A DNA stretch of 64,000 nucleotides from Candidatus Sericytochromatia bacterium (GCA_036676985.1 JAKFBU010000026.1:192001-256000), one strand, 5' to 3'. Shown: positions 2,129 to 41,258, counted from the first letter of the stretch. Translations and numbers: made by a program. The notes: generated by a model not told the origin, from the letters alone.

Positions 2129-2143
2129 AAGGGAATCCTCCAC

Positions 2144-2257
2144 TCAGTGGTCGTCGACGCGCTGAAACTCCTGCAGCCTTAGGTGGATGGCAGCGCTACG
2201 GCTGGGATGCCCCCGGATTATAAGCCATGCTTGCTCCGTCAGGCCAGCGTCCTGGGC
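2144..2257 (-). pseudogene. Remnant of the 3' end of the HD-domain gene at 4142..4633
   Basis: Translates AQDAGLTEQAWLIIRGH...RLQEFQRVDDH*, matching AQAAGLPEQACLIIREH...WLAEFQRIDDD*; no recognisable 5' part. Confidence 0.75.
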
Positions 2258-2392
2258 CGGTCCAGGCTGTTCGGGGTGGGTCAGCGCGTGAGTGGATGCG
2301 GTATTGCCCGGTTGGTCGCGCTCATCGAGGCAATCGGCCGACTATTTTATCGCCGCCGCGAGGGAGGGATCATCGCAGGCGCTGGAGGTGAG

Positions 2393-3568: not shown

Positions 3569-3569
3569 A

Positions 3570-4082: not shown

Positions 4083-4141
4083 GGGATCATCCTCTGGGCA
4101 GCCGAACGGTCCTGCCCTCATGGTACCAGGCTGAGCGCTCG

Positions 4142-4633: not shown

Positions 4634-5274
4634 GGCAGGAGGTTGAAGACCCACCGAGCGGCCGTCTGGATCAGGACGGACAGGCCGTGGTTGGCGCCCG
4701 GCCACATGACCAGGAGCACCAGGAGGATGATGCCGTAGGGCAGTGCGTTGTAGTAGAGCTGCCGCAGGCCAGCGGGCAGGATGGCCGACCAGATGTGGCC
4801 GCCGTCCAGGGGCGGGATGGGCAGGAGGTTGAAGACCGCGAGCCCGATGTTCATGAAGAAGAAGGTCATGACGACGCCCGAGGCGGCCTGGTAGTCCGTG
4901 CCGAACGAGACGTACTTGAGGACGGCCGCCGCCGCGAGGGCCAAGAGGAGGTTCATGGCGGGGCCCGCGAACGAGACGAGCACCTCACCGTTCTTCATGC
5001 GCAGGTTGTTGGGGTTGAACTGGACGGGTTTGCCCCACCCGATGGGCGCGAACAGGATCATGATCGTGCCCAGCGGATCCAGGTGCGCGAGCGGGTTGAG
5101 CGTGACGCGCCCCTGCTGCTTGGGCGTGGGATCGCCCAGGGCGTAGGCCGTGGCCGCGTGGCCGAACTCGTGCACCGACAGGGACACGAGCAGGAGCGGC
5201 ACCCAGATGAGGGCGCGGTTGAGGAGGTCGTAGGCGTCGAAGCCCGCACCCGAGAAGATTCCAAACGAGAGCAT
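4630..5274 (-). CDS. Site-2 protease (peptidase M50)
   Basis: HEFGH zinc motif, GRVTLNPLAHLD, AGPAMN, FNLLPIPPLDG. Confidence 0.93.
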   Translation of the reverse strand: MLSFGIFSGAGFDAYDLLNRALIWVPLLLVSLSVHEFGHAATAYALGDPTPKQQGRVTLNPLAHLDPLGTIMILFAPIGWGKPVQFNPNNLRMKNGEVLVSFAGPAMNLLLALAAAAVLKYVSFGTDYQAASGVVMTFFFMNIGLAVFNLLPIPPLDGGHIWSAILPAGLRQLYYNALPYGIILLVLLVMWPGANHGLSVLIQTAARWVFNLLP

Positions 5275-5297
5275 CAAGTCGTCCTTTCTACGGACAA

Positions 5298-23760: not shown

Positions 23761-24876
23761 TTGTCATCAATGGGAGCTCGCAAACCCCCGAAGAAGCCGG
23801 AAAAGAAGAGCCTTTTCGCTAGCCTGTTCGCCGGATTCGGCGGCGGCAAGAAGAAAGAGGATCCCAAGAAGCGTCCGGCCTCCGGCAGCGGCAAGAAGAC
23901 CGCTGCGGGTGCTCCCAAGAAGGGCGCCTCCCTGGCCAAGAAGCCCAAGGTGCAGGCTCCGCCCCCCGATGAGGACTTCCTGACCAACGACGATCCCCTC
24001 GCCGGGATCGAGAACGACCTCCTGGGCGCCATCGACGGGGACATGTTCTCCGGGGTGGACTTCGCCGCACCCGAGCCCCCGCAGCCCATGCACGTCGAGC
24101 ACCGGGTGCCCCCGGCCCAGCCCCCGATGCAGCCGGCGCCCCAGCCTCAGCAGGCGGCGGCTCCCGCTCAGGGCAGCTCGCTGTTCGGCCCCGACGGCGT
24201 GGACAACGCCCTCGACTCCCTCTTCGACAGCTTCGAGGTGGGTGGCGGCGCCCCCGCGGCTCCGCCCGCGCCGCCGCAGCCGGCCCCCCAGCCGATGATG
24301 CAGCAGGCGCCAGCACCCCAGCCCATGATGCAGCAGGCTCCGGCGCCGCAGCCCCAGGCTCCGCGTCCCCAGCCCGCGCCTCCCGCCGCCCAGCAGCCTC
24401 CGCAGCAGGACGGCCTGGTCTCCATCGGTAAGCTCCTGGTCGACCAGAACACCCTCAAGCGCATCATCGACAACGCCGAGAAGCGCGGTACCGGCCTCTA
24501 CACCACCACCCGCATCATCTCGAACGCCAAGGGCGCCGACCTCGACGCCATCCTCGGCCAGATCGACCAGTGCGGCGGCGTTGCCGGCAGCCTCATCGTC
24601 GGCCGCGACGGCCTGGTCATCGCGAGCACCCTGCCCACCAACTTCGACAAGGAGCTGGTCGGGGCGATCGCGAGCTCCATGCAGACCAACCTGGACGTCC
24701 AGTGCAAGAAGATGAAGCTGGGCACCGCGCGCCAGGTCATCCTCGACACCGAGGGCGGCGTGGTCCTGCTCATCGCCCTCGAGGTGGGCGTGCTGGTGGT
24801 GATGAGCCAGTCGCTGATGTCCCTGGATCTGACCGGCGTGCTGTCGGTGATCGCAGGCATCGCCGAGAAAGTCTAA
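23761..24876 (+). CDS. Roadblock/LC7 (MglB-like) domain protein with long disordered N-terminus
   Basis: C-terminal GVAGSLIVGRDGLVIAS...LGTARQVILDTEGG; Lys-rich, acidic and Pro/Gln-rich N-terminal segments; AGGAG RBS before TTG. Confidence 0.82.
   Translation: MSSMGARKPPKKPEKKSLFASLFAGFGGGKKKEDPKKRPASGSGKKTAAGAPKKGASLAKKPKVQAPPPDEDFLTNDDPLAGIENDLLGAIDGDMFSGVDFAAPEPPQPMHVEHRVPPAQPPMQPAPQPQQAAAPAQGSSLFGPDGVDNALDSLFDSFEVGGGAPAAPPAPPQPAPQPMMQQAPAPQPMMQQAPAPQPQAPRPQPAPPAAQQPPQQDGLVSIGKLLVDQNTLKRIIDNAEKRGTGLYTTTRIISNAKGADLDAILGQIDQCGGVAGSLIVGRDGLVIASTLPTNFDKELVGAIASSMQTNLDVQCKKMKLGTARQVILDTEGGVVLLIALEVGVLVVMSQSLMSLDLTGVLSVIAGIAEKV
24286..24345 (+). repeat. Coding tandem repeat 2 x 30 bp (PQPMMQQAPA)
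   Basis: Two near-identical 30-bp units in the Pro/Gln linker. Confidence 0.7.
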
Positions 24877-24957: not shown

Positions 24958-26862
24958 GTGGCCATCGTCAAGATGAAGCTGGGCGAGATTCTGCTCAACG
25001 CGAATCTCATCACCGAGAACCAGCTCAAGACAGCCGTCGAGATCCAGAAGCAGACCAAAGAGAGCCTCGGGCTCATCCTGATCAAGCAGGGCTACATCAC
25101 CGAGGCCTCCATCAAGGACGCCCTCGAGCTGCAGTACGGCCTCCGGTACATCAACCTCCGCAAGACCAAGGTTCCGCCCGAGGTCCTCAAGCTCATCCCC
25201 GAGAACCTCCAGCGCCAGCACCAGATCATCCCCGTCTCCCTGGCCAACAACCGCCTGACGCTGGCCATGGTGGACCCCACCAACCTGATCGCCATCGACG
25301 ACGTGCGCTTCACGCTCAAGGGCGTGACGGTGCAGCCGGTGGTCATCACCGAGGACGAGTTCTTCTGGTTCATGGACAACCAGACCGCGACCGCGGCCCC
25401 CGAGGTCGAGTCCGGTCCGGTCATGGACATCTCGTCGGTCCTGGGCGAGATCGCCTCGGACGACGAGCTCGAGGTCGTCGAGCAGAAGGAAGACAACACC
25501 AAGACCATCGAGCTGGAGCGGCAGGCCGAAGAGTCGCCGATCATCAAGCTCGCCAACTCGATCCTGACCAACGCCATCGGCGGTGGCAAGAAGGTCTCGG
25601 ACATCCACATCGAGCCCTGGGAGAACGAGGTCATCGTCCGGTACCGCATCGACGGCATCCTGCACCGGCAATCGACCATCCCCCGCAAGTTCCTGGCCGC
25701 CATCGTCAGCCGCTTCAAGATCATGGCCAACCTGGACATCTCCGAGAAGCGCCTCCCGCAGGACGGCCGCATCCGCGTGCGCTTCAAGGGCCGCGACTGG
25801 GACTTCCGATTCTCGAGCCTGCCTTCCAAGTTCGGCGAGAAGATCTGCATGCGCGTGCTCGACAAGTCGAGCACGACGCTCGGCCTCGAAAAGCTGTTCA
25901 TCTTCCCCGAGGACCTGGCGGTGGTCAACGAGATGGCCAACCGTCCCTTCGGCATCATCTTCGTCACGGGCCCCACGGGCTCCGGCAAGTCGACGACCCT
26001 GTACTCGATCCTCAACATGCGCAACACGCCGGACGTCAACATCGTCACGGCCGAGGACCCCATCGAGTACGACGCGCCCGGCATCAACCAGTGCCAGGTG
26101 CGCCCGGAGATCGGCTACACCTTCGCCCGCGTCCTCAAGGCGTTCCTGCGCCAGGACCCGGACATCATGCTCATCGGTGAGACGCGCGACCTGGAGGTGG
26201 CCAAGATCGCCATCGAGTCCGCGCTCACGGGCCACCTGGTCTTCACGTCGCTGCACACCAACGACGCGCCCGGCGCCATCACCCGTCTGCACGAGATGGG
26301 CGTCGAGGGCTTCATGGTGTCGGCGGCGACCATCGGCATCATCGCCCAGCGTCTGGTGCGGCGCCTCTGCCCCAAGTGCAAGCAGCCCCACACTCCGACG
26401 CCTCAAGAGCTCGACTACGTGGGCTACCGGTACGATCCGGACAACCTGCCGACCTTCTACAAGGCGGTGGGCTGCAACGAGTGCTCGAAGGGCTACTCGG
26501 GCCGCATGGGCGTCTACGAGATCATGAAGCTGAACGACGAGCTGCGCGATCTGATCGCCCGCGGCGCGTCCACGGCCCTCATCCGCTTCGCGGCCAAGCA
26601 GTCCGGCATGACCACCCTCAAGGACTACTCGCTCAAGCTGGTGCGCGACGGCCACACGTCCCTGGACGAGGTCATCCGCGTGACGTTCTCGGGTGAGGGC
26701 GAGGAAAAGCTTTGCCCCGGCTGCCGGAACCCCATCGGCGACGAGTTCATGAAGTGTCCCTTCTGCCAGATCGACCTCAAGAAGGTTTGCCCCAAGTGCC
26801 ATCAGCGGGTAGAAGATGGATGGAAGGGTTGCCCGGCGTGCGGGACGTTGCTCGCGGTATAG
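24958..26862 (+). CDS. pilB: Type IV pilus assembly ATPase with MshEN-like N-terminus and C-terminal double zinc ribbon
   Basis: KLGEILL..., SDIHIEP, GPTGSGKS, LRQDPD, terminal CxxC x4. Confidence 0.93.
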   Translation: MAIVKMKLGEILLNANLITENQLKTAVEIQKQTKESLGLILIKQGYITEASIKDALELQYGLRYINLRKTKVPPEVLKLIPENLQRQHQIIPVSLANNRLTLAMVDPTNLIAIDDVRFTLKGVTVQPVVITEDEFFWFMDNQTATAAPEVESGPVMDISSVLGEIASDDELEVVEQKEDNTKTIELERQAEESPIIKLANSILTNAIGGGKKVSDIHIEPWENEVIVRYRIDGILHRQSTIPRKFLAAIVSRFKIMANLDISEKRLPQDGRIRVRFKGRDWDFRFSSLPSKFGEKICMRVLDKSSTTLGLEKLFIFPEDLAVVNEMANRPFGIIFVTGPTGSGKSTTLYSILNMRNTPDVNIVTAEDPIEYDAPGINQCQVRPEIGYTFARVLKAFLRQDPDIMLIGETRDLEVAKIAIESALTGHLVFTSLHTNDAPGAITRLHEMGVEGFMVSAATIGIIAQRLVRRLCPKCKQPHTPTPQELDYVGYRYDPDNLPTFYKAVGCNECSKGYSGRMGVYEIMKLNDELRDLIARGASTALIRFAAKQSGMTTLKDYSLKLVRDGHTSLDEVIRVTFSGEGEEKLCPGCRNPIGDEFMKCPFCQIDLKKVCPKCHQRVEDGWKGCPACGTLLAV

Positions 26863-26966: not shown

Positions 26967-28070
26967 ATGTACATGGAGGAGCTGCTGCAGCTCGTGTTCG
27001 ACCGCGACGGGTCGGACCTGCACATCTCGGCGGGCGTCCCGCCCATCATCCGCATCAACGGCAAGCTGGTGCGCACGGACTACGATCCGCTGACGCCCGA
27101 GGACACCCAACGCCTCATCTTCTCGATCCTCTCCAACGACCAGCGCAAGAACCTGGAACAGACCATGGAGCTCGACTGCTCGTACGGCGTGGTCGGCCTG
27201 GGCCGCTTCCGCGTCAACGCGTTCAAGTCCAAGGGCGCCTACGCGGCCGTCTTGCGTACCATCTCGACCAAGATTCCCCGCTTCGAGGACCTGGGCCTAC
27301 CTCCGCTGGTTCGCGAGCTGACGCACAAGCCCCGCGGCCTCATCCTCGTCACCGGCCCCACCGGTTCGGGCAAGTCGACCACCCTGGCGGCGATGATCGA
27401 CAACATCAACGCCACCCGCGCCGAGCACATCCTCACCATCGAGGACCCCGTCGAGTACGTCCACATCCCCAAGATGAGCCTGGTCAACCAGCGCGAGCTC
27501 GGGGCGGACACCAAGAGCTTCGACAACGCCCTCAAGGCGGCCCTGCGCGAAGACCCCGACGTCATCCTGGTGGGTGAGTTGCGCGACCTGGAAACGATCC
27601 GCCTCGCCATGACCGCCGCCGAGACCGGTCACTTGGTCTTCGGCACGCTTCACACCTCGAGCGCCATGCAGACGGTGGACCGCGTCGTCGACGTCTTCCC
27701 GCCGCACCAGCAGCAGCAGATCCGCGTCCAGATCTCGAACTCCCTGGTCGCCGTCCTCTCGCAGACCCTGGTCCCCAAGGTCACGGCCGACGGCAAGGGC
27801 AAGGGCCGCGTGATGGCCCTCGAGATCCTGGTCAACACCCCGGCCATCGCGAACCTGATCCGCGAGGGCAAGACGGCCCAGATCTACTCGGCCATCCAGA
27901 CCGGCCAGAAGTTCGGCATGCAGACCCTCGAGAGCTGCCTGAAGGACCTCTACTTCAACCGCCTCATCTCGTACGAGGACGCGATCGCCAAGACCTCGCG
28001 CCCCGAGGACCTGATCCGCATGATCGGTGCGGCCCCCTCGGGATCGATGGCCCAGGCGATGGCTCGCTAA
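26967..28070 (+). CDS. pilT: Type IV pilus retraction ATPase
   Basis: SDLHISAG, GPTGSGKSTT, ALREDPD, AIANLIREGK, GMQT. Confidence 0.95.
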   Translation: MYMEELLQLVFDRDGSDLHISAGVPPIIRINGKLVRTDYDPLTPEDTQRLIFSILSNDQRKNLEQTMELDCSYGVVGLGRFRVNAFKSKGAYAAVLRTISTKIPRFEDLGLPPLVRELTHKPRGLILVTGPTGSGKSTTLAAMIDNINATRAEHILTIEDPVEYVHIPKMSLVNQRELGADTKSFDNALKAALREDPDVILVGELRDLETIRLAMTAAETGHLVFGTLHTSSAMQTVDRVVDVFPPHQQQQIRVQISNSLVAVLSQTLVPKVTADGKGKGRVMALEILVNTPAIANLIREGKTAQIYSAIQTGQKFGMQTLESCLKDLYFNRLISYEDAIAKTSRPEDLIRMIGAAPSGSMAQAMAR

Positions 28071-28212: not shown

Positions 28213-29472
28213 ATGCCGACCTATCAGTGCAAGGTTCGCGATCACCGCGGCGAGGCGTTCATGAAGACCATGACCGGCGAGAACGCGGTCGAGGTGCGCA
28301 ATCGCCTGCGTGAGATGGGCTACATGGTCGTCACGCCCGTCACCGAGAAGCGCGACAACGCCCTGACGTCCATGAACGTCGGCCAGAACCTCAAGTTCCT
28401 GGACCAGCTCAACGACTACATGGCCAACGCCGGCAAGGTCAAGCTCTCGGACCTGACCATCTTCAGCCGGCAGTTCGCGACCATGATCAACGCGGGCGTG
28501 GCCATGGTGCGCGCCCTCCACATCCTCTCGGAGCAGACGAAGAACCCCAAGCTGCGCAAGGTCATCCTCGACCTCAAGACCCGCGTCGAGTCCGGCAACT
28601 CGCTCTCGGACTCCATGTCCAAGCACTCGACGGTCTTCGACAAGCTGTTCGTCGGTATGGTCCGCGCGGGCGAGGCGGGCGGCGTCCTGGACGAGGTCCT
28701 GTTGCGCGTGGCGGCCTTCCAGGAGGCCTCCAACAAGCTGCAGGGCCAGGTCAAGTCGGCCATGACCTACCCCATCGTCGTCTCGGTGATGGCGGTCGGC
28801 ATCTTCGTGGCGATGCTGGTGTTCATCCTGCCCGTCTTCGCGAACATGTTCGCCCAGATGAACGCCAAGCTGCCCGAGTACACGCAGTTCCTCATCGACA
28901 TGTCGAACATGGTCCGCGGCCCCATCGGTGTCGGCATGTTCTTCGGCATCGTGGGCTTCACCATGCTCTTCCGCCGCTGGGCCAAGACCGACCACGGCAA
29001 GCACTTCCTGGACAAGCACATCCTGAACCTGCCGGTCTTGGGCCCCCTGGTCCAGAAGGTCTCCGTGGCGCGCTTCACGCGCACGCTGGGCACCCTCTTG
29101 CGCTCGGGCGTCCCCCTCCTGAGCGCGCTCGAGATCGTCCGCGACTCGGCGGGCAACACCCAGGTCTCGGGCGCGGTGGAAGACGTCCGCCAGGCGGTCC
29201 GCGAGGGCGAGGGCATCACGCGGCCCCTGGAGAAGGCGGCCATCTTCCCGCCCATGGTCACGCAGATGATCTCCATCGGCGAGGAGACGGGCGCCATCGA
29301 CTCCATGCTGGAGAAGGTCGCGGACTTCTACGACGAAGAGGTGGAGGCCGCGGTCAAGAGCCTCACGTCCCTCCTGGAGCCCCTGATGATGGTCGGCATC
29401 GGTCTGCTGGTCGGCTCGATCGTCGTGGGCATGTACCTGCCCATCTTCAGCATCATCAACAACGTCAAGTAA
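28213..29472 (+). CDS. pilC: Type IV pilus inner-membrane platform protein (GspF family)
   Basis: FSRQFATMINAG, AGEAGGVL, SAMTYP, GEETG, LEP, YLPIF. Confidence 0.95.
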   Translation: MPTYQCKVRDHRGEAFMKTMTGENAVEVRNRLREMGYMVVTPVTEKRDNALTSMNVGQNLKFLDQLNDYMANAGKVKLSDLTIFSRQFATMINAGVAMVRALHILSEQTKNPKLRKVILDLKTRVESGNSLSDSMSKHSTVFDKLFVGMVRAGEAGGVLDEVLLRVAAFQEASNKLQGQVKSAMTYPIVVSVMAVGIFVAMLVFILPVFANMFAQMNAKLPEYTQFLIDMSNMVRGPIGVGMFFGIVGFTMLFRRWAKTDHGKHFLDKHILNLPVLGPLVQKVSVARFTRTLGTLLRSGVPLLSALEIVRDSAGNTQVSGAVEDVRQAVREGEGITRPLEKAAIFPPMVTQMISIGEETGAIDSMLEKVADFYDEEVEAAVKSLTSLLEPLMMVGIGLLVGSIVVGMYLPIFSIINNVK

Positions 29473-30606: not shown

Positions 30607-32436
30607 CTAGTGGTACGTGAGGTGCCCGTAGACCTTCTTGGTGGCGCCGACCGTCTCCTCGTAGAGGACCAGCCCGCGTCGAGACGTCGGATCGACGGCG
30701 ACCTCGCCCTTGGTCTGGATATTCGTTTGCGAGGCGACGGGGAACTCGGACCCCCACTGCGCCCCGTCCAGCCCCACGTGCACCGCGTAGAGGTCCGTGT
30801 CGGTGCTCCGGTTGTCGCCCCACGTGACGAGGAAGGTGCCCCGTGCGGGTTCGTAGGCCACGTGTGGCGCCTCCTTGAGGCTGTTGACCGAGTTGATCGT
30901 CACGGCGCCGCCCACCAGGCTGCCTGCCTTGGAGACGCGTTGGCCCATGATGTGGTCGCGAAAGCCTGTGACGGCCCCGTCCCACACGACGAAGAAGTCC
31001 CCCGACACGGCGTCGACCGCTACCGCGGGATCCGTCTGGTTATTGGCGCCGCTCCCGATGGTGAGGACCGACCCTCCCGCCGTACCGTCGGGATTGATGA
31101 GCCGACCCGCGACTTGCATGGGGCTCGATTGGCTCGTGCTGGCCACGAGGAACTTGTTGGCGATCGCCGAGTAGGCGACCGTGGCCCGGGACTGCGCGAC
31201 CGACGCCACGCTCACGAGTGAGACGTTTCCTCCGATCAGGCTCCCGTCGCTTGCCAGGCGCTGGCCATAGATGACATTGGTGCCCGCGCGCGAGTCCTCC
31301 CAGACCACGAGGTACTGCAGGTTGGTCGGGTCGTAAGCCACCTTGGCATTGCCGCGCGTGCCGGTCGTCGAGCCGAGGGTGATCGTCCCGCCGAGCAAGG
31401 TGCCGTCCGACTTGACGATCTGCCCCAGGATGGCGTTGTTGCTCTCGAAGGCCACCAGGTAGCGGTTGTTGGTGCTGTCGTAGGCGATGGCCGGCTTGGA
31501 GCTCTGAGCGGCCAGGTTGGCGATGACGATCTCGGAGCCCGTCACGCTCCCCGTCGTGCTCATGCGAACGCCGTAGATGCCCGCGCCCGACGTTGCTCGG
31601 CTGTCCGTCCAGGCGGAGAGGTACTGGTTGTTGCCGTAGGCGACCGCGGGATCCTGCTGCTGGCCACCGCCGCTGGTGGAGGCGTAACGATTGCCCACCA
31701 TGCCGACGACCGTGAAGCCGGTCCGGAAGGCGACGGACGTCCCGACCTGGACCTGCCAGGTTTTGCCGCCGGGCGACATATCGCTCGGGACGGTGGTCGA
31801 GAGCGTGGTGCTCGTGAGCGTGCTCGGGGTGATGGCCTGCATGGCGCCGGCGGTGCCGAACGTGGCCTGGGTGATGCTCGGCAAGACGCTGAAGCCCTGC
31901 CCATTGAGGGTCACGGAGGTGCCGGGGCTACCGGTCGCCGGGCTGAAGCTCGTGAACGCAAAGGCCGGATACACGATCATCGGAACGGTGACGGCGTTCG
32001 GCCCCGCTACGAGGTTGACGGTCACTTGCTTTTCACCGACGAGCGAGCTGAAGGCCCCGCCGTTCCAGAGGTCCACGGTCAACGTGTAGCCGCTTTGCGG
32101 GCGCAGGCCCCCGCCCAAGGCTGCGGTCGCCACGTAGGTGCTGCCGCTCGCCACGATCTGCGCTCCCTTGATCAGGGTCTTCTGTCGGGGATCGGTCAGG
32201 ACGCTTGCATGCTCGAGCCGCAGGGTGGCCGTGTCCCAGGTGCCGGGTAGCGCCTGGGTCGAGCGCGCCGGGAGCTGGAGGTCGACCGAAAGGGTTGCCG
32301 GGAGCTCGTCGTGATCGCTGGCAGGCTGAGCGTTCAGGCGGATGCCTGCGGGGACGACCATGGCCTCCGGTGGGACCGAGGCTGAGCATCCGACCAGGAG
32401 CAAGGTCTGGAGTAGGAAGAAGCTGCGTCGAGTCAT
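30607..32436 (-). CDS. Lipoprotein with IPT/TIG-like domain and C-terminal repeat (beta-propeller-like) region
   Basis: Lipobox LVGC; FSPATGSPGTSVTLNGQGF; repeated P(A)VAY...YLVVW.D.R....IYGQR units. Confidence 0.78.
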   Translation of the reverse strand: MTRRSFFLLQTLLLVGCSASVPPEAMVVPAGIRLNAQPASDHDELPATLSVDLQLPARSTQALPGTWDTATLRLEHASVLTDPRQKTLIKGAQIVASGSTYVATAALGGGLRPQSGYTLTVDLWNGGAFSSLVGEKQVTVNLVAGPNAVTVPMIVYPAFAFTSFSPATGSPGTSVTLNGQGFSVLPSITQATFGTAGAMQAITPSTLTSTTLSTTVPSDMSPGGKTWQVQVGTSVAFRTGFTVVGMVGNRYASTSGGGQQQDPAVAYGNNQYLSAWTDSRATSGAGIYGVRMSTTGSVTGSEIVIANLAAQSSKPAIAYDSTNNRYLVAFESNNAILGQIVKSDGTLLGGTITLGSTTGTRGNAKVAYDPTNLQYLVVWEDSRAGTNVIYGQRLASDGSLIGGNVSLVSVASVAQSRATVAYSAIANKFLVASTSQSSPMQVAGRLINPDGTAGGSVLTIGSGANNQTDPAVAVDAVSGDFFVVWDGAVTGFRDHIMGQRVSKAGSLVGGAVTINSVNSLKEAPHVAYEPARGTFLVTWGDNRSTDTDLYAVHVGLDGAQWGSEFPVASQTNIQTKGEVAVDPTSRRGLVLYEETVGATKKVYGHLTYH

Positions 32437-32553
32437 GGTCCTGCCCTCTGGTACATGGCGAGTGGGCAAGGATTATTTAATCAAACTACTTGAAGTTTTG
32501 TAAATGATAGGTGCGTGGAGCTTCCTCGAAGGGGTGGAGTGCGGCGGGTTGGC

Positions 32554-32922
32554 CTAGACGGTGGCCTGCTTCTTCTGGATGGCCAGCGCCTCTTGCACCT
32601 GCGCGGCCGTGCAGTAGCCCAAGTCGACGAGGATCTCGCCCATGAGGCCGCCTGCGTCGGTCTGGCGCCGCAGGGCATTCTCGAGCTGGGGCTTGGTGAT
32701 GATGCCTTCCATGATGAGCAATTGACCGAGCTTGCACTGCGCGCGGTAGGCGCGCAGGCTCTCGAGCAGGTCCGTGAAGCCGATGGCCTGCATGCTCACC
32801 AGGATCTCGCCGATGCGCATGAAGGGCATCTGCGTCTGGAAGGTGCGTGCCTTCTGGAGCAGGGGCTCGGGAACGCTTCCTATGGCGACCAGGTAGGCTC
32901 CGAACTTGCCGTCGATGTCCAT
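32554..32922 (-). CDS. Stand-alone protein of four MshEN-like (PilB/GspE N-terminal) motifs, candidate c-di-GMP receptor
   Basis: 122 aa; RIGEILV, KLGQLLIMEGIITKPQLENALRRQ, LMGEILVDLGY...QVQEALAIQ; ATG overlaps upstream stop (TGATG). Confidence 0.8.
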   Translation of the reverse strand: MDIDGKFGAYLVAIGSVPEPLLQKARTFQTQMPFMRIGEILVSMQAIGFTDLLESLRAYRAQCKLGQLLIMEGIITKPQLENALRRQTDAGGLMGEILVDLGYCTAAQVQEALAIQKKQATV

Positions 32923-35900
32923 CAATCCTCCACCCATTGCACCTGGTTGCGTCCCTTGACCTTGGCCATGTACAGGCCGCGATCGGCCCGCTCGATGAGC
33001 TCCGCGATGCGCTCGTCCTCGAGCCGCAGGCTGCTCACGCCCAGCGAGACCGTGATCTGCCGGAGGGCGTTGTCGTCCGAGTCCATGAGCTCGATCTCCG
33101 ACACCGAGCGGCGGATGCGATCGGCCACGATGAGGGCGCCCTCGAAGTCCGTGTCCGGCAGCGAGACGATGAACTCCTCGCCCCCGTAGCGCGCGACCAC
33201 GTCCGCCAGGCGGACCGCCTGGCCGAGCACCACCGAGACCGACTGCAGCACCTGATCCCCCAGGGCATGGCCGAAGGTGTCGTTGAAGCTCTTGAAGTGG
33301 TCGATGTCCAGCATGATGACGCTCAGGTGGCGGCGGTGCCGGCGGGCCTGCGCGAAGTCGCGGTTCAGCTGGTCCTGGAAGAAGCGCCGGTTGTGCAGGC
33401 CCGTGAGCGCGTCGGTCGAGGCCCGGAGGTTCGCCTCTTCGTAGAGCATGACCAGGTTCTCGAGCTCGTTGGCACGCCGGGCCAGCTGCGTGTAGAGGTG
33501 CGCGTTCTCGATGGCCACCGAGGCGTGGTTCGCGATCGCCTCCAGCAGCTCCAGGTCCCGCTCGGTGAAGTGGTTCACGATGGCCTGGCTGTCGACGTAC
33601 AAGAGGCCGAGCACCGTCTGCTTGGCGATGAGGGGCACGCACATGACCGTGCGCAGGTTGAGGGCCATGATGCTCGCCTGAACCTGCAGGTGCTCGTCGG
33701 CGCTCGCGTCCTCGACGCACAGGCTCTCGCCCGAGTCGAGCACCCGCTGGCAGATGGACTGGCTGATGGCCTGGGCCTCGGGATCGAGCCGCTCGCCGCC
33801 CCTCTTGAAGGCCGCCCGGCAGCTGAGGCGGTCCTGCTCCCAGAGCAGCAGGAAGCCACGCTCGGCGGTCGTGACCTCCAGGGTGAGCTGCACGACGAGA
33901 TCCAGCACCTCCTCCATCACGAGCGTGGTCGAGATGGTGCGCGAGAGGCTGTTGAGCATCTCGAGCTTGCGGCTCTTGTCGTCCCACTCGTGATGCAGGT
34001 TGGCGTTCTCGATGGCCGTGGCCGTCAGGGCCGCAAGGCTCATGACCACGTCCAGGTCGCCCTCCGAGAAGCCGTTGCCGATGGACTGGCGATCGACGTA
34101 GAGCGAGCCCACCACCACGTTGCGGATCTTGAGGGGCACGCACAAGACGGTGCGGACGTTGAGCTCCTGCACCGACTGCGAGTGCGAGAAGCGATCGTCC
34201 GAAAGGGCGTCCTGCAGGCAGATGGGCTGCTCGGTGCGGAGCACCTCCTCGGCCACCGAGCGGCTGATGAGCCAGTCGGCCTCCTCCTCGCCGCGGATGT
34301 TGCGCAGCTGGCTGACCTGGATCTCACCCTCCTTGTAGAGCAGGAGGAAGCCGCGCTCGGCCTCGGCGATGCCGATGATGAGGTCCATGGCCATCTCCAG
34401 CACCAGCTGGAGGTCGTGCACCTGGTTGATCTTGAGGGCGAAGTCGATGAGCTGCTCGAGGCGTTCCTGCGACTTCTGAGACCCCTGGCGCTGGGCGGAT
34501 TCGCCGCGCAGCTGGGCGAGGATGTCGGCGAGCTCGCCGCCGACCTTGCCGAGCCGCGCCTCGACGGACAACCCGGAGCTTGCGATGCCCTGGGCGCGGG
34601 GCACCCACGGAGCGAACCAGCCCGACTCGAAGGCCGGGCGATCGCCCTCCGCGAGGCCGGCGAAGAGGCGATCCGCCTCGTTGTTCGCGATCTTCTGCAG
34701 CGAGTCGCCGCGCAGGGGATCGGCCTCTGCCAACAGGCGCAGGATGCGGCCGTGCAGGAGCGGGCTACCGATGCCCTCGGCAAGGTTCAGGGCCTTTCTC
34801 AGGTGCTCGACGGCAAGCGACCGGTGATCCTGGACGAGCTTCAGCTCGCCGAGCAGCGCATGCGCCTGGGCCGAGAGGTAGCGCGCGCCGATCTCGTCGG
34901 CGTCCTGCAGGGCGTCATGGGCGAGCTGCTGAGCCGTGGCGTAGTCCTTGGAGTGGCTCGCGACCAGGGCCAGCGCCCACATGGCCTTGGCGCTGATGCC
35001 CCTGGCGTTGGAGGCGTCCGCCGCCTTGCGCGCGGTGGTCAAGGTGAGGCGCGCAGCCTCGCGCTCGCCCGTGAGGAGCTGGGCGAGGCCGAGCATCACC
35101 TGCTGCTGCGGGATGATCTCGCGCACGCCTGTCTCCTCGGTCATGGCGAGGGCCGCCTTGGCGTACTCGGCGGCCTCGGCGAGCCGGCCGAGCTGCAGCA
35201 AGGCATCCGAGCGGTAGACGGCGATGGTGACTTCCAGGTAGCGGTTGTTCATCTCGCGGGCGAGCGCTAGGCCGCGATCCACCTCGGCCATGCCCGTGCC
35301 CAGCTGACCCAGGTAAAGGCGAGCGATGCCCGAGAGCGTGACGGCCATGCCCTCGGCATAGCGGCTGTTGGTGGCGATCGCCCCCTCTGCCGCGAGCTCC
35401 GCGAGCCGCAGGGCCTCCTGCACGTCGCCCATCTCGAAGGCCACGATGGCGAGGTTCAGGTGGCCGAAGATGAGCTCGTCGGTCTGCCCGATCTCGGCAT
35501 TGATCTGCTGGCACTGCAGGAAGCACTCGTTGGCCTCGGAGTAGCGGCCGAGGGCGAGGTAGGCGTTGCCGAGCAGCATGGTCGTGTCGTTGAGGCCGAT
35601 CTTGTCGCCCAGGCCCTGCTTGATGACGAGGCTCTCCTGCAGGTAGGCGAGCCCCTCTTCCTGGCGCTCGGGATCCGAGGCGAACAGGTAGCCCAGAAAG
35701 GCCAGGCTCTCGGCCAGGTACACCGGGACGTTGGCCTCGCGCGCCACCGCGAGCGCCCGCGAGAAGACCTCGATGGTGGCGGGCACGTCGCCGCCGAAGT
35801 AGGTGATCCGGCCGAGCGTCGTGAGCGCCCGCCCGAGATCCCGCGTGGCACCCGCCTCCTCGGCGACCTCGGCGGCGCGCCGGAGCGCCTCCTTGGCCTG

Positions 35901-38153
35901 GTCGTACTGGCCTGCGGTCTGGTGGATCTTGCCCTGGCTCGAGAGGATGCGCGAGACGAGTACCTTGTCGCCCAAACGCTCGGCAAGGACCAGGGCCTCG
36001 TCGAGGGCCGCCGAGGCCTCCTTCTGGTCGCCCTGGCGGCGGGCGACATCCCCCAGGCCCACCAGGTAGCGGAGCTTGAGGCCCGGATCGGTGTCGTCCT
36101 GATGCCGGAGGCCCGCCTCGAAGTACTTGCGGGCCTGGGCGTTGGCGAAGAGGTCCAGGTTGCGCTCGCCGGCCCGCAGCGCGAAGGGAACCGCCCGCTG
36201 GGGCTCCTCGCCTTCGAGCAGGTGGGTGGCGACCGCGTTCAACAGCGCCACGTCGGCGGGCTTTTCCGCGAGCTCGGGCAAGAGGGCCTCGGCCACGTGA
36301 CCATGGAGCGCCTTGCGCTCGGACTCGCCCAGGGAGCCGTAGACGAGGCTGGCGATCTGGTGGTGCGAGAACTCGTAGCCGGTGGGACCGAGCTCCAGCA
36401 CGCCCTCGGCTTCCAGTTCGCCGATGGCCTGGAAGAGGGACTCGTCCTGGGGCAGGTCCGGCAGCGCGCTCAAGAGGGCGAGGCGCGTGCCGCCACCAGC
36501 CACGGACACGGCGCGCGCGACGGCGATCGCCTCGGGGCCGAGCGCGTCGATCTTCTGGCCCATGAGGCCGTGCAGATCGCTGGGCAGGGCCGCGAGGTTG
36601 AAGCCGCCCTCGGTCTGCCAGGCGCCGTTCTGCTTGACGAGCATGCCCGACTCGACCAGGTAGTGCAGCAGGTCGTTGAGGTAGCGCGGGTTGCCGGCGC
36701 TCACCTCGAGCACGGGCTCGAGGAACTCGGGCGCGAGCTTCTCGGTGCCGAGCATGGAGGCGATCATCCGGGTGGCCTCCTCGGCCGAGAGGTTCTCGGC
36801 CGAAAAGCGCTGGACGGGCTCAGTGGCGGGCGAGCCGCCCACGAGCACCAGGAAGAGCGGCGCCTGCTGGCTGTTGCGCAAGAGGTGGTCGCAGAGCTCG
36901 CGCGAGGGCTCGTCGAGCCACTGGGCGTCGTCGATGAGCAGCACCAGGCCCTTGGAGCGGGCGATCGCCCCCAGGACGTCGCTCACCGCCCCCTGCAGGC
37001 GCATCTTCTCCTGCTGGGGCTCCAGGGCCTCGGGGGCCTCTCCGGTGCCGAGCTCGGGCAGGAGGCGCGAGAGGACCGGGGCATGGGTGTCGAGCAGCGC
37101 CGGGCAGAGCGTGCGGGCGAGCGGCAGGAGGGCGCGGAGGGCCTCCACGATGGGCGCGTAGGGAGCGGCCTGCTCGGGGGCGCGCACGGCGGCCGTCGCC
37201 TGCTCGGCGAGCTGGGCCACCAGGTGGAACTCCTGACCGAGGCGCGTCTTGCCGCTGCCGGCCCCGCCCTCGACGAGCACCAGGCCGCCTTCGGCGCCCA
37301 GCATGCCCTCGAAGCGACCGAGGGCCTCCGCGCGGCCGATGAAGGACGGCTCCAGGAGGGTCGTGCCGACCTCTTCGGCGTCGTAGCCGAGGGCCTCCAG
37401 GACCTCGCCGGCCGACTGGTAGCGCTTGAGGGGATCCTTGGCCATCAGGCGCATGACGAGCGCCTCGAGGGCCGGATCGATGCCCGCGGCCTTGTCCGTC
37501 AGCGTGGGGACGGGGGCGTCCAGGTGGCTCTTGATGAGGTCGATGGTGCTCGCGGCCTGGTAGGGCGGGAAGCCCGTCAAGAGGTGAAAGGCGACGGCTC
37601 CGAGCGCGTAGAGGTCCGCGCGCTGGTCGACGCGGCCGCCGCGCGCCACCTCGGGCGCCAGGTACAGGAGGGTTCCGCGGATGGGGCCGCCCGCGCGGCC
37701 CGCCCGCTCCATGAGCCCGAAGTCCATGAGCTTGACCTGGCCGCCCGTCGTGAGGCGCACGTTCTCGGGCTTCAGGTCCCCGTGCACGTAGCCCTGCGCG
37801 TGGATGAAGGAGAGCGCCCGGCACAGCCCCGCGAGCACCTCGCGCACGGCCGAGGCCGACATGGGCAGGGCCTCGTCCAGCCCCTGGCCCGCCACGATCT
37901 CCATGGTGAAGTAGGGCGTGCCGTCCTCCAGGGCGCCGTAGTCGTAGACCTCCACCGTGTGCGGGTGGCGCAGGCGGGTCATGGTCCAGAATTCGTGCTT
38001 GAGTTGCTGGAGGGCGGCGGCTCCGGTGCCGTGGACGAGCTTGAGGGCGACGTCGCGGTCGGTGACGGTGTCGCGGACCGACAGCACCTTGCCCATCCCC
38101 CCCTCCCCGAGGGAGGCGAGGATCTCGTAGCGATTGGCGATGGCGTTGGACAT
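32922..38153 (-). CDS. Ser/Thr kinase-STAND/AAA ATPase-TPR-GAF-GAF-GGDEF multidomain diguanylate cyclase
   Basis: GEGGMG, HGDLKPEN, DFG, APE; GGAGSGKT and LLIDDAQW; TPR-like helices; two GAF domains; DALTGLHNRR, DIDHFK, RLAD...GGEEF. Confidence 0.92.
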   Translation of the reverse strand: MSNAIANRYEILASLGEGGMGKVLSVRDTVTDRDVALKLVHGTGAAALQQLKHEFWTMTRLRHPHTVEVYDYGALEDGTPYFTMEIVAGQGLDEALPMSASAVREVLAGLCRALSFIHAQGYVHGDLKPENVRLTTGGQVKLMDFGLMERAGRAGGPIRGTLLYLAPEVARGGRVDQRADLYALGAVAFHLLTGFPPYQAASTIDLIKSHLDAPVPTLTDKAAGIDPALEALVMRLMAKDPLKRYQSAGEVLEALGYDAEEVGTTLLEPSFIGRAEALGRFEGMLGAEGGLVLVEGGAGSGKTRLGQEFHLVAQLAEQATAAVRAPEQAAPYAPIVEALRALLPLARTLCPALLDTHAPVLSRLLPELGTGEAPEALEPQQEKMRLQGAVSDVLGAIARSKGLVLLIDDAQWLDEPSRELCDHLLRNSQQAPLFLVLVGGSPATEPVQRFSAENLSAEEATRMIASMLGTEKLAPEFLEPVLEVSAGNPRYLNDLLHYLVESGMLVKQNGAWQTEGGFNLAALPSDLHGLMGQKIDALGPEAIAVARAVSVAGGGTRLALLSALPDLPQDESLFQAIGELEAEGVLELGPTGYEFSHHQIASLVYGSLGESERKALHGHVAEALLPELAEKPADVALLNAVATHLLEGEEPQRAVPFALRAGERNLDLFANAQARKYFEAGLRHQDDTDPGLKLRYLVGLGDVARRQGDQKEASAALDEALVLAERLGDKVLVSRILSSQGKIHQTAGQYDQAKEALRRAAEVAEEAGATRDLGRALTTLGRITYFGGDVPATIEVFSRALAVAREANVPVYLAESLAFLGYLFASDPERQEEGLAYLQESLVIKQGLGDKIGLNDTTMLLGNAYLALGRYSEANECFLQCQQINAEIGQTDELIFGHLNLAIVAFEMGDVQEALRLAELAAEGAIATNSRYAEGMAVTLSGIARLYLGQLGTGMAEVDRGLALAREMNNRYLEVTIAVYRSDALLQLGRLAEAAEYAKAALAMTEETGVREIIPQQQVMLGLAQLLTGEREAARLTLTTARKAADASNARGISAKAMWALALVASHSKDYATAQQLAHDALQDADEIGARYLSAQAHALLGELKLVQDHRSLAVEHLRKALNLAEGIGSPLLHGRILRLLAEADPLRGDSLQKIANNEADRLFAGLAEGDRPAFESGWFAPWVPRAQGIASSGLSVEARLGKVGGELADILAQLRGESAQRQGSQKSQERLEQLIDFALKINQVHDLQLVLEMAMDLIIGIAEAERGFLLLYKEGEIQVSQLRNIRGEEEADWLISRSVAEEVLRTEQPICLQDALSDDRFSHSQSVQELNVRTVLCVPLKIRNVVVGSLYVDRQSIGNGFSEGDLDVVMSLAALTATAIENANLHHEWDDKSRKLEMLNSLSRTISTTLVMEEVLDLVVQLTLEVTTAERGFLLLWEQDRLSCRAAFKRGGERLDPEAQAISQSICQRVLDSGESLCVEDASADEHLQVQASIMALNLRTVMCVPLIAKQTVLGLLYVDSQAIVNHFTERDLELLEAIANHASVAIENAHLYTQLARRANELENLVMLYEEANLRASTDALTGLHNRRFFQDQLNRDFAQARRHRRHLSVIMLDIDHFKSFNDTFGHALGDQVLQSVSVVLGQAVRLADVVARYGGEEFIVSLPDTDFEGALIVADRIRRSVSEIELMDSDDNALRQITVSLGVSSLRLEDERIAELIERADRGLYMAKVKGRNQVQWVED

Positions 38154-38187: not shown

Positions 38188-38215
38188 ATTAAACCCCGGC
38201 GGACGGGGGTTTAAT
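38188..38215. terminator. Hairpin at end of mlaD
   Basis: ATTAAACCCC-8 nt-GGGGTTTAAT. Confidence 0.4.
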
Positions 38216-39536
38216 CCAGTGGTCGCCACTGTCCGCCGATGAAGTACTGGGTGTCGTTGGTGCTCATGGTGCGGATCCATGCGGCGGTGATGCCGTACTT
38301 CTGGTTCCACCAGTCGGGATAGTAGGAGGCAGCGAGGCGCACCGAAAGGGCAGCAGGGTCATAGACCTCGCCCTTGACCTCCAGGGCGCTGTTCGGCAGC
38401 CAGTCGACGCCGATGCCGATCTTGCTGCGCACCATGCCCAGGTGGAAGCCGAGGCCATCCGACAGGAAGTTGGGCTTGCCCCAGGTGACGTTCCAGACGT
38501 TGTCGTCGCCGATGCCCTCGACGCCGACCTGGAAGGCGTCGGCCGGAAGGCGGAGGGCCATGTTGAAGCTGCCGTAGCCGTAGGAGCCGTTGAACGTGGC
38601 GCTGTTCTGCTGGACGCCCATCAGGTCGAAGCGCGGCGAGAGCTTGGGCGGGTTGAGCGTCAGGTTCCCCACCTGGGTGACGACCCGGCGCGAGTTGGCC
38701 ACCAGGTCCTTCACGTCGGCCGTGACCTGGGGGTCCTTGGACACCAGCTCGACCTGGGCGGCGATGCCCTCCAGGCGGGCCGTGAGGTTCTTGAGGTTGG
38801 TGAGCGTTTCCTGGGCCTCGGAGAGCTGGTCGCCCTGGCCCGCGAGGGCCTGGTAGCTCTTGCGCAGGCCGCCCGAGAGGTAGCGCAGGTCACTGACGAT
38901 GGTCCGAAGATCATCGGGCGAGAGCGAGCCCGCCAGCGTGTCGGCGTTGGAGACGAAGCCCTGGGCGGCCACGGCCACCTCGTCGGTGTGCTTGATGAGC
39001 TCCTGCAGGTCGGCAAAGGCGCTCTCGAAGTTCTTGATGCCGTCCTGGAGGGCGAGCTTGGTCTCCGGGGACTCTGCAAGCTCGCGGAAGGCGACGACGG
39101 CCTTGTTGGCCTGCTCGATGGCGTTCTCGAGGCGCGGCAGGCTGATGCCGTAGACCGTGGCGTCGGCGGCGAGGAACTTGGCCTCCTTGCTCGAGTCCTC
39201 GGGCGGGAAGATCTCGAGGTTCTTCTCGCCGATGATGCCCTTGTTGAGGATCTTGAACTGGGAGCCTTCGAGGATGCGGGTCTGGCGGTCGGAGATCTCG
39301 AAATCGACCACCACCGTGCGGTCCTGGGGGTAAAGGGCCGTGACGCGTCCCACCTTGACGCCCATGAGCAGCACGTTGGCGCCCGGCATCAGGCCGTTGA
39401 CGTCCGCGAAGACGGCGCGCAGCTTGTAGCCCTGGGGACGGAAGGAGACCTGCGTGAGCCAGCTGAGGCTCACGACCATCAGCAGCAGGGCCACGACCGT
39501 GACCATTCCGACTTTTGCGGCGGCGGATAGCTTCAA
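38211..39536 (-). CDS. mlaD: MlaD/MCE family protein
   Basis: TM helix, DVNGLMPGANVLLMGVKVGRV, GIIGEKNLEIFP, coiled coil; TTG after AGGAGG. Confidence 0.88.
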   Translation of the reverse strand: MKLSAAAKVGMVTVVALLLMVVSLSWLTQVSFRPQGYKLRAVFADVNGLMPGANVLLMGVKVGRVTALYPQDRTVVVDFEISDRQTRILEGSQFKILNKGIIGEKNLEIFPPEDSSKEAKFLAADATVYGISLPRLENAIEQANKAVVAFRELAESPETKLALQDGIKNFESAFADLQELIKHTDEVAVAAQGFVSNADTLAGSLSPDDLRTIVSDLRYLSGGLRKSYQALAGQGDQLSEAQETLTNLKNLTARLEGIAAQVELVSKDPQVTADVKDLVANSRRVVTQVGNLTLNPPKLSPRFDLMGVQQNSATFNGSYGYGSFNMALRLPADAFQVGVEGIGDDNVWNVTWGKPNFLSDGLGFHLGMVRSKIGIGVDWLPNSALEVKGEVYDPAALSVRLAASYYPDWWNQKYGITAAWIRTMSTNDTQYFIGGQWRPLD

Positions 39537-39555
39537 GGCGTCCCTCCTGTCCGGG

Positions 39556-40314
39556 TCATTGTATCGCGCCCGGTCCCGGGTCGCCACGCAAAAAGGACGA
39601 AATGATGGGCTCGGTGCTGTTCTGCATCTCAGCGGGTGTTCCCGCACCCACCACCTTGCCCTGGTGCAGCATCACGATCCGCTCGCCGGTGCGGAAGATC
39701 GTGGAGAGCTGGTGGGTGACGACGATGGAGGTGGCGCGGGTCTGCTGGGCGATGCGGACGATCAGGTCCTCGATGATGGTCGAGGTGATGGGATCGAGGC
39801 CCGTCGTGGGCTCGTCGTAGAGGATGAGGGCCGGGTTGCGGGCGATGGCGCGGGCGATGGAGACGCGCTTCTGCATGCCGCCCGAGAGCTCCGATGGAAA
39901 CAGGTGGCTCGTGCCCGTGAGGCCCACCACCGCGAGCTTCTCCTCGACGGTCGCCCGGATCTCCTCGTCGGTCAAGACCGTGTGCTCGCGCAGGGCGAAG
40001 CCCACGTTCTCGCCGACGGTCATGCTGTCGAAGAGGGCCGCCGACTGGAAGACCATGCCGACCTGGTGCCGGAACGTGACCCAGTCCTCCGGCGACAGCC
40101 GGGTCAGGTCCTCGCCATTGCAGAAGATGGCCCCCGTGTCCGGCTTCATGAGGCCCATGATCATGCGCAGGATGGTGCTCTTGCCGCAGCCCGAGGGGCC
40201 GATGACGACCGTGGAGCGGCCCGCCTCGAACTCGCAGGTGACGCCGCGGAGCACCGGCTTGGGGCCGAAGCTCTTCTCGAGGCCGTCGAGGGTGAGGTGC
40301 AGCGCCTCGCTCAT
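39556..40314 (-). CDS. mlaF: MlaF/Mkl-type ABC transporter ATP-binding protein
   Basis: GPSGCGKS, FQSAALFDS, LSGGMQKR, YDEPTTGLDP. Confidence 0.9.
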   Translation of the reverse strand: MSEALHLTLDGLEKSFGPKPVLRGVTCEFEAGRSTVVIGPSGCGKSTILRMIMGLMKPDTGAIFCNGEDLTRLSPEDWVTFRHQVGMVFQSAALFDSMTVGENVGFALREHTVLTDEEIRATVEEKLAVVGLTGTSHLFPSELSGGMQKRVSIARAIARNPALILYDEPTTGLDPITSTIIEDLIVRIAQQTRATSIVVTHQLSTIFRTGERIVMLHQGKVVGAGTPAEMQNSTEPIISSFLRGDPGPGAIQ

Positions 40315-41105
40315 CGGGCCGAGGCTCCGGGGAAGAGGAGGGCCGAGAGGAAGTAGTTGAGGACGAAGATGGTGATCAGGCTGAAGACCACCGAGTCGGT
40401 GGTGGCCTTGCCGACGCCGCGCGCGCCGGAGGTGGTGGTGAGGCCCTGCTGGCAGCCGATGAGGCCGACCACCACGCCGAAGATGCCCGCCTTGAAGAGG
40501 CCGCGCAGGACGTCGCCCGCGACCACCAGGTCCTGCAGGCTGTTGGTGAAGAGCTGGGGCGTGATGCCCTTGACGCCCACGGCCACCGCGTAGCCTCCCG
40601 ACACGCCGACGACGTCCGCGAGGAAGGCCAGGACGGGCAGCATCAGGGTGCAGGCGAGCACCCGGGGCACGACCAGGTAGTAGATGGGATCGGTCGCCAG
40701 CGACGTGAGGGCGTCGATCTGCTCGGTGACCTTCATGGTGCCGAGCTCGGCCGCGATGGCGGCCCCCACCCGTCCGGCGATGACGACGCCCGTGAGGGTG
40801 GGCACCAGCTCGCGCACCAGGGCGATGGTCGAGACGCCGCCGATGACGGAGGTGGCCCCGTAGCGGATGAACTCGTTGGAGATTTGGAGCGTGAAGACCA
40901 TGCCCACGGACACGGCCGTGATGAGGGCGATGGGCAGGCTCTCCACCCCGATGAAGGCCATCTGCTGGAAGGTATTGCGCCAGTGGATCCGGCCCGAGAG
41001 GGCGAGCTTGAGGAAGGAGCCGAACAGCACGACGAAGCCCCCCAGTCGCTCGAGCGAACCAAGGGCTTGATTTCCCACCCGTTCCAAGACCGATTCGACC
41101 CGCAT
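40311..41105 (-). CDS. mlaE: MlaE family ABC permease
   Basis: RELVP, AGRVGAAIAAELGTMKVTEQIDAL, VVPR, GARGVGKATT. Confidence 0.92.
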   Translation of the reverse strand: MRVESVLERVGNQALGSLERLGGFVVLFGSFLKLALSGRIHWRNTFQQMAFIGVESLPIALITAVSVGMVFTLQISNEFIRYGATSVIGGVSTIALVRELVPTLTGVVIAGRVGAAIAAELGTMKVTEQIDALTSLATDPIYYLVVPRVLACTLMLPVLAFLADVVGVSGGYAVAVGVKGITPQLFTNSLQDLVVAGDVLRGLFKAGIFGVVVGLIGCQQGLTTTSGARGVGKATTDSVVFSLITIFVLNYFLSALLFPGASAR

Positions 41106-41258
41106 GGCCCCTCCGAGGCGCACCGTGGGGCTGTTTGCGCCCCAATGCCCGAATCTTACCACACAAGGGTGAGCAGTTCCTACGGATGACGTGCCAGCGA
41201 TATGAACCTAGGATGAAGGATCCTAACGCCTTCTTGCTTAGAGCCCCCGGAGCTGCCT

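Follow-up and report, generated by a model that had tools for sequence, protein, structure and literature searches.

A small gene overlapping the end of a diguanylate cyclase gene

The window analysed here is the whole 64,000-nt stretch (Candidatus Sericytochromatia bacterium, GCA_036676985.1 JAKFBU010000026.1:192001-256000). It carries, on the minus strand, a gene of 122 codons which begins with an ATG at 32922 and ends with a stop at 32554-32556, and which overlaps by one base the end of a long gene for a GGDEF-domain protein; a set of pilus genes lies on the plus strand. The features needed below are as follows.

32554..32922 (stop included), minus strand: small gene, encoding a stand-alone (MshEN_N)2 protein of 122 aa (from the ORF, homologues, dN/dS, NF053729 and AlphaFold)
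32575..32733, minus strand: C-terminal module, residues 64-116, an intact MshEN_N (NF053729 on this half alone, 64.9 bits, positions 1-53 of 53)
32746..32907, minus strand: N-terminal module, residues 6-59, a degenerate MshEN_N with R26, Q45, Y59 and a 6-residue spacer (NF053729 on this half alone, 19.0 bits)
32920..32931, minus strand: junction, with GGAGGA at 32926-32931, the cyclase stop TGA at 32922-32924 and the ATG at 32920-32922 (direct reading)
32922..38153 (stop included), minus strand: cyclase gene, Ser/Thr kinase - AAA_16 - TPR - two GAF - GGDEF, 1743 aa (Pfam)
32943..33422, minus strand: GGDEF domain, cyclase residues 1578-1737, GGEEF with RLAD upstream (PF00990, E 2.3e-47)
24958..26862, plus strand: PilB-type ATPase with MshEN, T2SSE and zinc ribbon, context (Pfam; PF05157, E 1.6e-18)
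26967-28070, plus strand: PilT-like ORF, named from its translation, context
28213-29472, plus strand: PilC-like ORF, named from its translation, context

In a mechanical ORF list the small gene appears only as the tail of a 529-aa ORF with a GTG start (32554..34143), as an earlier note on this DNA had pointed out, and this longer ORF is spurious since it overlaps the cyclase gene in another frame. The small gene itself is real and conserved. Its product has 10 homologues of 122-126 aa with 48-88% identity (named "hypothetical protein" throughout in their sources), 42 columns are invariant across the whole protein in this family of 11 members, and comparison with the sister species (genome G001) gave a dS of 0.64 and a dN/dS of 0.16, which corresponds to purifying selection; a spurious ORF is ruled out by the homologues and the dN/dS. 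Orthologues that are not linked to a cyclase gene also begin at MD or VD, which fixes the start at MD and rules out an alternative ATG 15 nt upstream (MGGGL-MD...). At the 3' end of the gene, one contig of run X7 joins position 32504 to 32627, with 122 bases skipped or replaced (including the last 24 codons), which may be strain variation.

The cyclase is apparently active, judging from its GGEEF and from RL[AS]D, an RxxD site located five residues upstream of GGEEF, both of which are invariant in 10 orthologues. All 10 family genomes contain an orthologue (65-93% identical over the last 500 residues), and in eight of them the open frame around the match runs to ~1750-1770 codons. Its place beside pilC and a sigma-factor gene is stable across several genera (both lie downstream of it in G003, G006 and G009; the window's genome, G000, and G001 likewise have them next to it), and the positional tie to pilus genes belongs to the cyclase, not to the small protein.

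Some further observations concern the surroundings of the two genes. Between the small gene and the sigma-factor gene, G000 carries a 620-aa protein with a Pfam TIG/IPT domain and an N-terminus that looks signal-peptide-like by eye (30607-32469, minus strand); it is absent there in G001, where the sigma gene comes directly (loci L014 and L045 compared). Directly upstream of pilB lies a 371-aa protein with a C-terminal Roadblock/LC7 domain (23761-24876, plus strand), and PilB itself ends in a double zinc ribbon (residues 586-629). Elsewhere in G000, further genes end in GGDEF (C4:63263-64678 and C28:38008-39321, within open frames of ~1650-1735 codons), with C-terminal regions 33-45% identical to the last 500 residues of the cyclase.

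Two MshEN_N modules and no other domain

Only two or three receptor domains for c-di-GMP are widespread. MshEN is one of them and, to our knowledge, almost everything known about it comes from forms fused to an ATPase or a glycosyltransferase. Against the NCBIfam model NF053729 ("cyclic di-GMP-binding domain, MshE-related", i.e., MshEN_N; 53 positions, curated cut-off 38 bits), the whole small protein scored 80.8 bits in two stretches. Four repeats can be delineated (residues 6-29, 36-59, 64-87 and 93-116), the number given in the earlier note, and the two halves align to each other with 30% identity over 57 residues (E 6e-5). The family profile matched the MshE N-domain (5htl, E 1.1e-9) by aligning residues 64-116 of the small protein to chain positions 9-61, which is exactly the ligand-binding tandem motif, and matched PilF (6f8l, E 1.9e-21) in three stretches. 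The nearby PilB was said to have a similar N-terminus, and indeed its residues 7-59, which pass as a c-di-GMP motif in their own right (NF053729, 62.0 bits), match the small protein's residues 64-116 with 38% identity (E 2e-8). The first motif positions in this PilB segment are Lys and Ser, not Arg.

The AlphaFold model of the small protein (35-sequence alignment, pLDDT 88.5) consists of eight helices in a 4+4 pattern with no strand. Its best nine Foldseek hits are c-di-GMP-bound MshE and PilF GSPII-B (prob 1.00, rmsd 0.8-1.4 A, 38-44% identity), with E-values of only 0.05-0.6 because the match is short (57 residues). [quoted passage not shown]

The two modules fill residues 6-116 of 122, and all other Pfam and NCBIfam models stay below their cut-offs. 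The alpha/beta MshEN_C subdomain that follows in other proteins is absent, as the small protein ends at residue 122 and its model contains helices only, and with no room for this subdomain the protein qualifies as a free-standing (MshEN_N)2, i.e., two tandem MshEN_N modules and nothing else. Sequence and model together therefore describe a stand-alone, cytoplasmic, all-helical protein made of MshEN-type c-di-GMP-binding motifs, as first proposed. The Pfam model PF05157 (MshEN/T2SSE_N) gave no match to the small protein or to any of the 11 family members, up to E 10, and the domain came to light through NF053729 and the family profile. A match to DUF4388/PatA_N (PF14332) over 29 residues stayed at 17.6 bits (E 0.004; gathering score 25 bits) and was weak in all 11 members (best E 1.9e-4), which probably reflects a shared helical motif; the other Pfam matches in the family were to UBA and sub-threshold.

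An intact C-terminal and a degenerate N-terminal ligand motif

Both modules were compared with the motif (R/K/L)LGxx[LVI][LVI]xxG[LVI][LVI]xxxxLxxxLxxQ, taken as two 24-residue copies with a 5-residue spacer. The C-module follows it, with copies at residues 64-87 and 93-116, a 5-residue spacer (88-92), and the residues K-L-G...G...L...L..Q and L-M-G...G...V...L..Q; its sole departures are M94 (position 2), Y103/C104 (positions 11-12) and V109 (position 17), of which the Met and Val of motif 4 are conservative changes from the consensus Leu. Gly 3, Gly 10, the hydrophobic residues at positions 2, 17 and 21, and Gln 24 are kept in the focal subfamily. Changes at G3, G10, L17/L21 and Q24 abolished binding in XpsE or PilB_3 (PMC5013675), and the C-half keeps every one of these positions. 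Its modelled structure superposes on c-di-GMP-bound PilF GSPII-B and MshE with VIA Z 8.1-8.2 and an rmsd of 1.1-1.8 A. Two cysteines, neither belonging to the published c-di-GMP motif, are also conserved: at the position of C104 (32611-32613; position 12 of motif 4), 29 of the 35 aligned sequences of the family, from different subfamilies, have Cys, and C63 (32734-32736) is invariant in the focal subfamily.

The N-module deviates from the motif in its 6-residue spacer and at R26 (position 21), Q45 (position 10) and Y59 (position 24). Arg26 occupies the place of MshE Leu29, Gln45 stands at the turn glycine and Tyr59 at the ligand-contacting Gln; at these deviating positions, the aligned members of other subfamilies have the canonical residues. 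In MshE, Leu29 stacks on a guanine, and L29R is among the changes listed for the non-binding XpsE (PMC5013675). On NF053729 the N-half stays at 19.0 bits, below the cut-off of 38, as compared with 56.2 and 58.3 bits for the N- and C-halves of the paralogue L006. Its fold is nonetheless predicted to persist, with 57 residues superposing at an rmsd of 2.0 A (VIA Z 8.7-8.9). As read from the deviating residues, the N-module probably does not bind the ligand in the canonical way, and since it is well conserved although degenerate, it is suggested to have another role.

The earlier note had also remarked that only one repeat keeps the canonical Arg. This is correct as an observation, in that R36 of repeat 2 is the only Arg at a first motif position, the others being K6, K64 and L93, none of which varies among the 11 family members; it does not hold as a weakness. 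PilF's GSPII-B domain has K167 and L196 at its first positions and binds c-di-GMP with a KD of 6 nM, the K167R and L196R changes weakened binding, and the authors extended the consensus to (R/K/L)LG... with a hydrophobic first residue as a predictor of very high affinity (PMC11731258); R1M/R30K was likewise tolerated (Wang et al. 2016, PMC5013675). Because Lys64 and Leu93 stand where this 6 nM binder has Lys and Leu, the missing Arg is no argument against binding. By sequence, the weak part of the small protein is its N-module, for reasons other than Arg.

The small protein likely has one canonical c-di-GMP site, in its C-module. An isolated MshEN_N(1-62) was fully competent without the C-subdomain (0.35 uM for c-di-GMP; PMC5013675), and the very high affinity of PilF also uses an Asp of the C-terminal subdomain (PMC11731258), a subdomain that the small protein does not have. 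Sequence and fold together make it most likely that a single c-di-GMP is bound by the C-module, with an affinity below the micromolar and possibly in the nanomolar range.

The junction suggests a shared message

Overlapping stop/start pairs usually mark co-expressed genes. At this junction the cyclase gene ends in ...GAG GAT TGA, the final A of which is the A of the small-gene ATG (TGATG, one shared base), and GGAGGA lies ~3-4 nt upstream of this ATG, a short spacing. The overlap corresponds to that described in the earlier note, and the layout of TGATG and GGAGGA is identical in the sister species, kept across a dS of 0.64. Position 32922 is bridged by DNA contigs of three other studies. A scan of 32350-33350 returned no promoter-like and no terminator-like site (0 of each), and the 3' flank of the small gene folds no better than shuffled sequences (z -0.01).

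From the overlap and the absence of an internal promoter- or terminator-like site, we infer co-translation of the cyclase and the small protein, and the one-base stop/start overlap makes it most likely that, in this genus, receptor and cyclase are made from one mRNA. The layout proposed for coupled translation with an apparently active cyclase is in place (TGATG overlap, with GGEEF and RxxD conserved).

The pairing is confined to one genus and the receptor family is multi-copy

The earlier note had made conservation of the gene pair a check on its reading, and the outcome went largely against it: the cyclase occurs in 10 of 10 family genomes, but only in two of these, G000 and G001, which belong to one genus, does the small-protein profile find a match within the 1.5 kb downstream of it. 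The count covers the 10 family genomes, and homologues P0002-P0008 (77-88% identity) lie outside it and may include further pairs. With 2/10 family genomes, a conserved cyclase-effector pairing of the DgcJ-NfrB type was not found.

A profile match at E<=1e-10 was obtained in 41 of 61 related genomes, among which close orthologues are restricted to G001 (83%, same genus) and G004 (62%). In G004 the small gene and the cyclase orthologue are on different contigs, and the small gene is flanked by genes for an unknown and a TolC-like protein. Similarly, a scan of metagenomes returned 68 stretches matching the pattern, of which one was a confirmed relative (L043, 53% identity); its neighbours, as named from translations, are a tRNA-thiolase-like (MnmA-like) and a LysM-like protein, and no GGDEF gene adjoins it (a REC-GGDEF-like ORF is ~3.6 kb away).

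Within the window's own genome, the family profile gave 34 matches, including six full-length four-repeat proteins, namely the small protein and five paralogues.

C39:202199-202552, C26:285685-286029, C76:64138-64476, C39:145269-145604 and C4:78566-78901: five further (MshEN_N)2 paralogues in G000 (loci L002-L006, L009-L013)

These five belong to several subfamilies, and in most of them both modules still have the canonical residues. Next to the five lie genes for an NAD-binding protein and endonuclease I; an aminopeptidase and a GH3 hydrolase; an M14 peptidase and a YbaK-type deacylase; an Mla-like operon with C92 amidase and S8 protease; and an amidohydrolase. These neighbours are mutually unrelated, and no GGDEF gene stands beside any of the five. 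Six-frame clustering of the neighbourhoods of 36 loci, which was dominated by antisense shadow ORFs of GC-rich DNA, revealed no recurrent partner and only synteny among close relatives. Two of the six G000 family members have Mla-like lipid-transport genes upstream of them on the same strand, which may be coincidence: the window reads ABC, MlaD, cyclase, small gene (38211-41166, minus strand), and L012 reads MlaE, ABC, MlaD, C92 amidase, paralogue (1674-7345, plus strand).

As the pairing occurs in 2/10 genomes and orthologues and paralogues lie elsewhere, one member of a multi-copy family appears to have been placed behind the cyclase in one genus. The comparison of these sequences suggests that the pairing is probably a recent genus-level recruitment rather than an ancient two-gene system. 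The proposed link of a putative dedicated receptor, buffer or decoy to the pilus motor found no backing beyond the domain ancestry shared with PilB and the position of the cyclase near pilBTC.

Relation to previously described proteins

The (MshEN_N)2 architecture is not new, having already been catalogued by Wang et al. (2016), whose Supplementary Table 4 lists "(MshEN_N)2" under the heading "MshEN_N only, no T2SSE_N1 domain" with Cyanothece sp. ATCC 51142 cce_1044 as example and Cyanobacteria as range, and whose Supplementary Fig. 3c aligns the two halves of cce_1044 (PMC5013675). As described there, cce_1044 resembles the small protein in having two MshEN_N modules (four 24-residue motifs), neither MshEN_C nor another domain, a length of ~120-145 aa and an origin in Cyanobacteria; the comparison is one of architecture, not of sequence, and the small protein differs by its asymmetric module pair and its place behind a cyclase. 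The family is also widespread. In an exhaustive profile search, 10,073 proteins passed E<=0.001, of which 1,078 also passed E<=1e-10, and the best 150 of these matches include 22 proteins of 117-175 aa matched in a single stretch of full length. The look-alikes in the Atlas form clusters named "hypothetical protein", with Cyanobacteriota and Bdellovibrionota as the most frequent sources, and our full-text literature searches returned no functional study or c-di-GMP binding measurement of a stand-alone (MshEN_N)2 protein.

The nearest characterized relatives are domains of larger proteins. The GSPII-B domain of Thermus thermophilus PilF (PDB 8pdk) resembles the small protein in its Lys/Leu first positions, its Gly/Leu/Gln positions and its fold of four helices (PilF 166-219 pairs with residues 63-117, with 38-44% identity in the structural hits), but it sits in a pilus ATPase, as one of its three N-terminal domains, and has a C-terminal alpha/beta subdomain, whereas the small protein is free-standing (PMC11731258). 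The N-domain of Vibrio cholerae MshE (PDB 5htl) has the same 53-residue tandem motif (Foldseek rmsd 0.8 A over 57 columns, 38% identity), and differs in having Arg at both first positions, an MshEN_C subdomain and a fused T2SSE ATPase (PMC5013675). For the association with a cyclase, the closest precedent is the local module formed by Escherichia coli DgcJ and NfrB, in which one given diguanylate cyclase supplies an effector of the MshEN type, and in some Pseudomonas a cyclase gene lies directly downstream of nfr operons (PMC8669469). In that system the MshEN of NfrB is fused to a glycosyltransferase and contact with the cyclase is documented by pull-down (PMC8669469), whereas the small protein has no fused output domain and its contact with the cyclase is hypothetical. 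As to its size and free-standing state, the small protein may be compared with the stand-alone PilZ adaptors described in the next paragraph.

Stand-alone PilZ adaptors are small c-di-GMP receptors with a single function, which they exert by attaching to other proteins; their fold and binding mode are unrelated to those of the small protein.

A candidate receptor for locally made c-di-GMP

We consider it fairly probable that the small protein is a c-di-GMP receptor or adaptor (or buffer), with an intact C-module and a degenerate N-module, that was recently recruited to the cyclase. In such a scheme, the small protein and the cyclase would, in this genus, be made from one mRNA via the stop/start overlap, and the arginine-free, Lys/Leu-type site formed by the intact 53 residues of the C-module would capture one c-di-GMP. 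The N-module, which appears to have kept its fold and lost three key ligand or turn positions, may form a surface for contact with a target, and the protein as a whole would act as receptor or adaptor (or buffer) for c-di-GMP made beside it. A role tied to locally made c-di-GMP is suggested by analogy with the DgcJ-NfrB precedent. A complex prediction for the GGDEF domain, the small protein and two c-di-GMP (score 0.00, mark 0.32) weighs neither way on binding.

It is rather unlikely, though likelier than the other alternatives, that the small protein is a general receptor reading the global c-di-GMP pool, with a target unrelated to the cyclase. The adjacency may indeed be incidental, because the pairing is seen in only 2/10 family genomes, the 62% and 53% identical orthologues (the one in G004 on another contig than the cyclase, the one at L043 without an adjoining GGDEF gene) are unlinked to such a gene, and the five paralogues of the same genome have unrelated neighbours; against such a reading, overlap and GGAGGA are kept between G000 and G001 across a dS of 0.64, and overlapping stop/start pairs generally point to co-expression. 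A different role for the same site, which we hold to be quite improbable, would be that of a high-affinity sink or buffer with no downstream target, setting a threshold or relieving product inhibition at the RxxD site. The Lys/Leu-type motif predicts high affinity, coupled translation would give a roughly fixed stoichiometry with the cyclase, and the RxxD site of the latter is conserved; a mere sink, however, would have no need of a degenerate N-module as strongly conserved as this one (42 invariant columns over the whole protein), and with one site per protein little would be buffered unless the protein were abundant.

The ligand itself may also be doubted, if the MshEN_N fold served as a protein-protein scaffold that does not bind c-di-GMP, like the N-domain of Xanthomonas citri PilB binding PilZ. 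Consistent with this, the N-half fails the curated cut-off (19 bits), no Pfam MshEN match was obtained, both halves superpose on the chain of the PilB(N)-PilZ complex (7lkn/7lko, Z 5.9-7.2), and many MshEN domains are described as having lost binding (PMC5013675). Against it, the C-half retains G3, G10, L17/L21 and Q24 and scores 64.9 bits on the model of the binding motif, and we regard a non-binding scaffold as distinctly unlikely. Returning to a receptor recruited to the cyclase, it is tempting to speculate further on a "catch and dock" arrangement, in which the C-module would capture, with nanomolar affinity, c-di-GMP leaving the co-translated cyclase, and the conserved, ligand-dead N-module would dock on a target, for example the pilus motor or a partner resembling PilZ; (MshEN_N)2 proteins, at about six per genome, would then be the main diffusible c-di-GMP effectors of this non-photosynthetic cyanobacterial class. 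Such an extended proposal is unlikely to be right in full.

MshEN_N modules have expanded across the class

The phylum of the window's organism appears to be Cyanobacteriota, as deduced from the NCBI names of the source MAGs of two homologues. Its genome (100% complete) contains 19 GGDEF and 12 PilZ matches, and the absence of any Photo_RC match in this complete genome indicates a non-photosynthetic lineage. NF053729 matches were counted in genomes G000-G060. Each of the 47 that belong to the window's class has 13-50 of them (G000 has 48), as against 0-4 in each of the 14 from other classes of the same phylum. MshEN_N modules have thus expanded more than ten-fold across the class, which contrasts with the scarcity of MshEN reported for model cyanobacteria (PMC12448109, PMC10124867). 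Photosynthetic cyanobacteria, in which receptors for c-di-GMP are notoriously few, have about a tenth as many of these modules.

Free-standing tandem MshEN_N proteins are a catalogued architecture, one of which is found here in a genus-specific coupling to a cyclase. The locus offers a compact test case that combines an intact site of the Lys/Leu type, a degenerate module and a cyclase on a presumed shared message. For the field as a whole, this single gene pair may be of less importance than the expansion of MshEN_N across the class.
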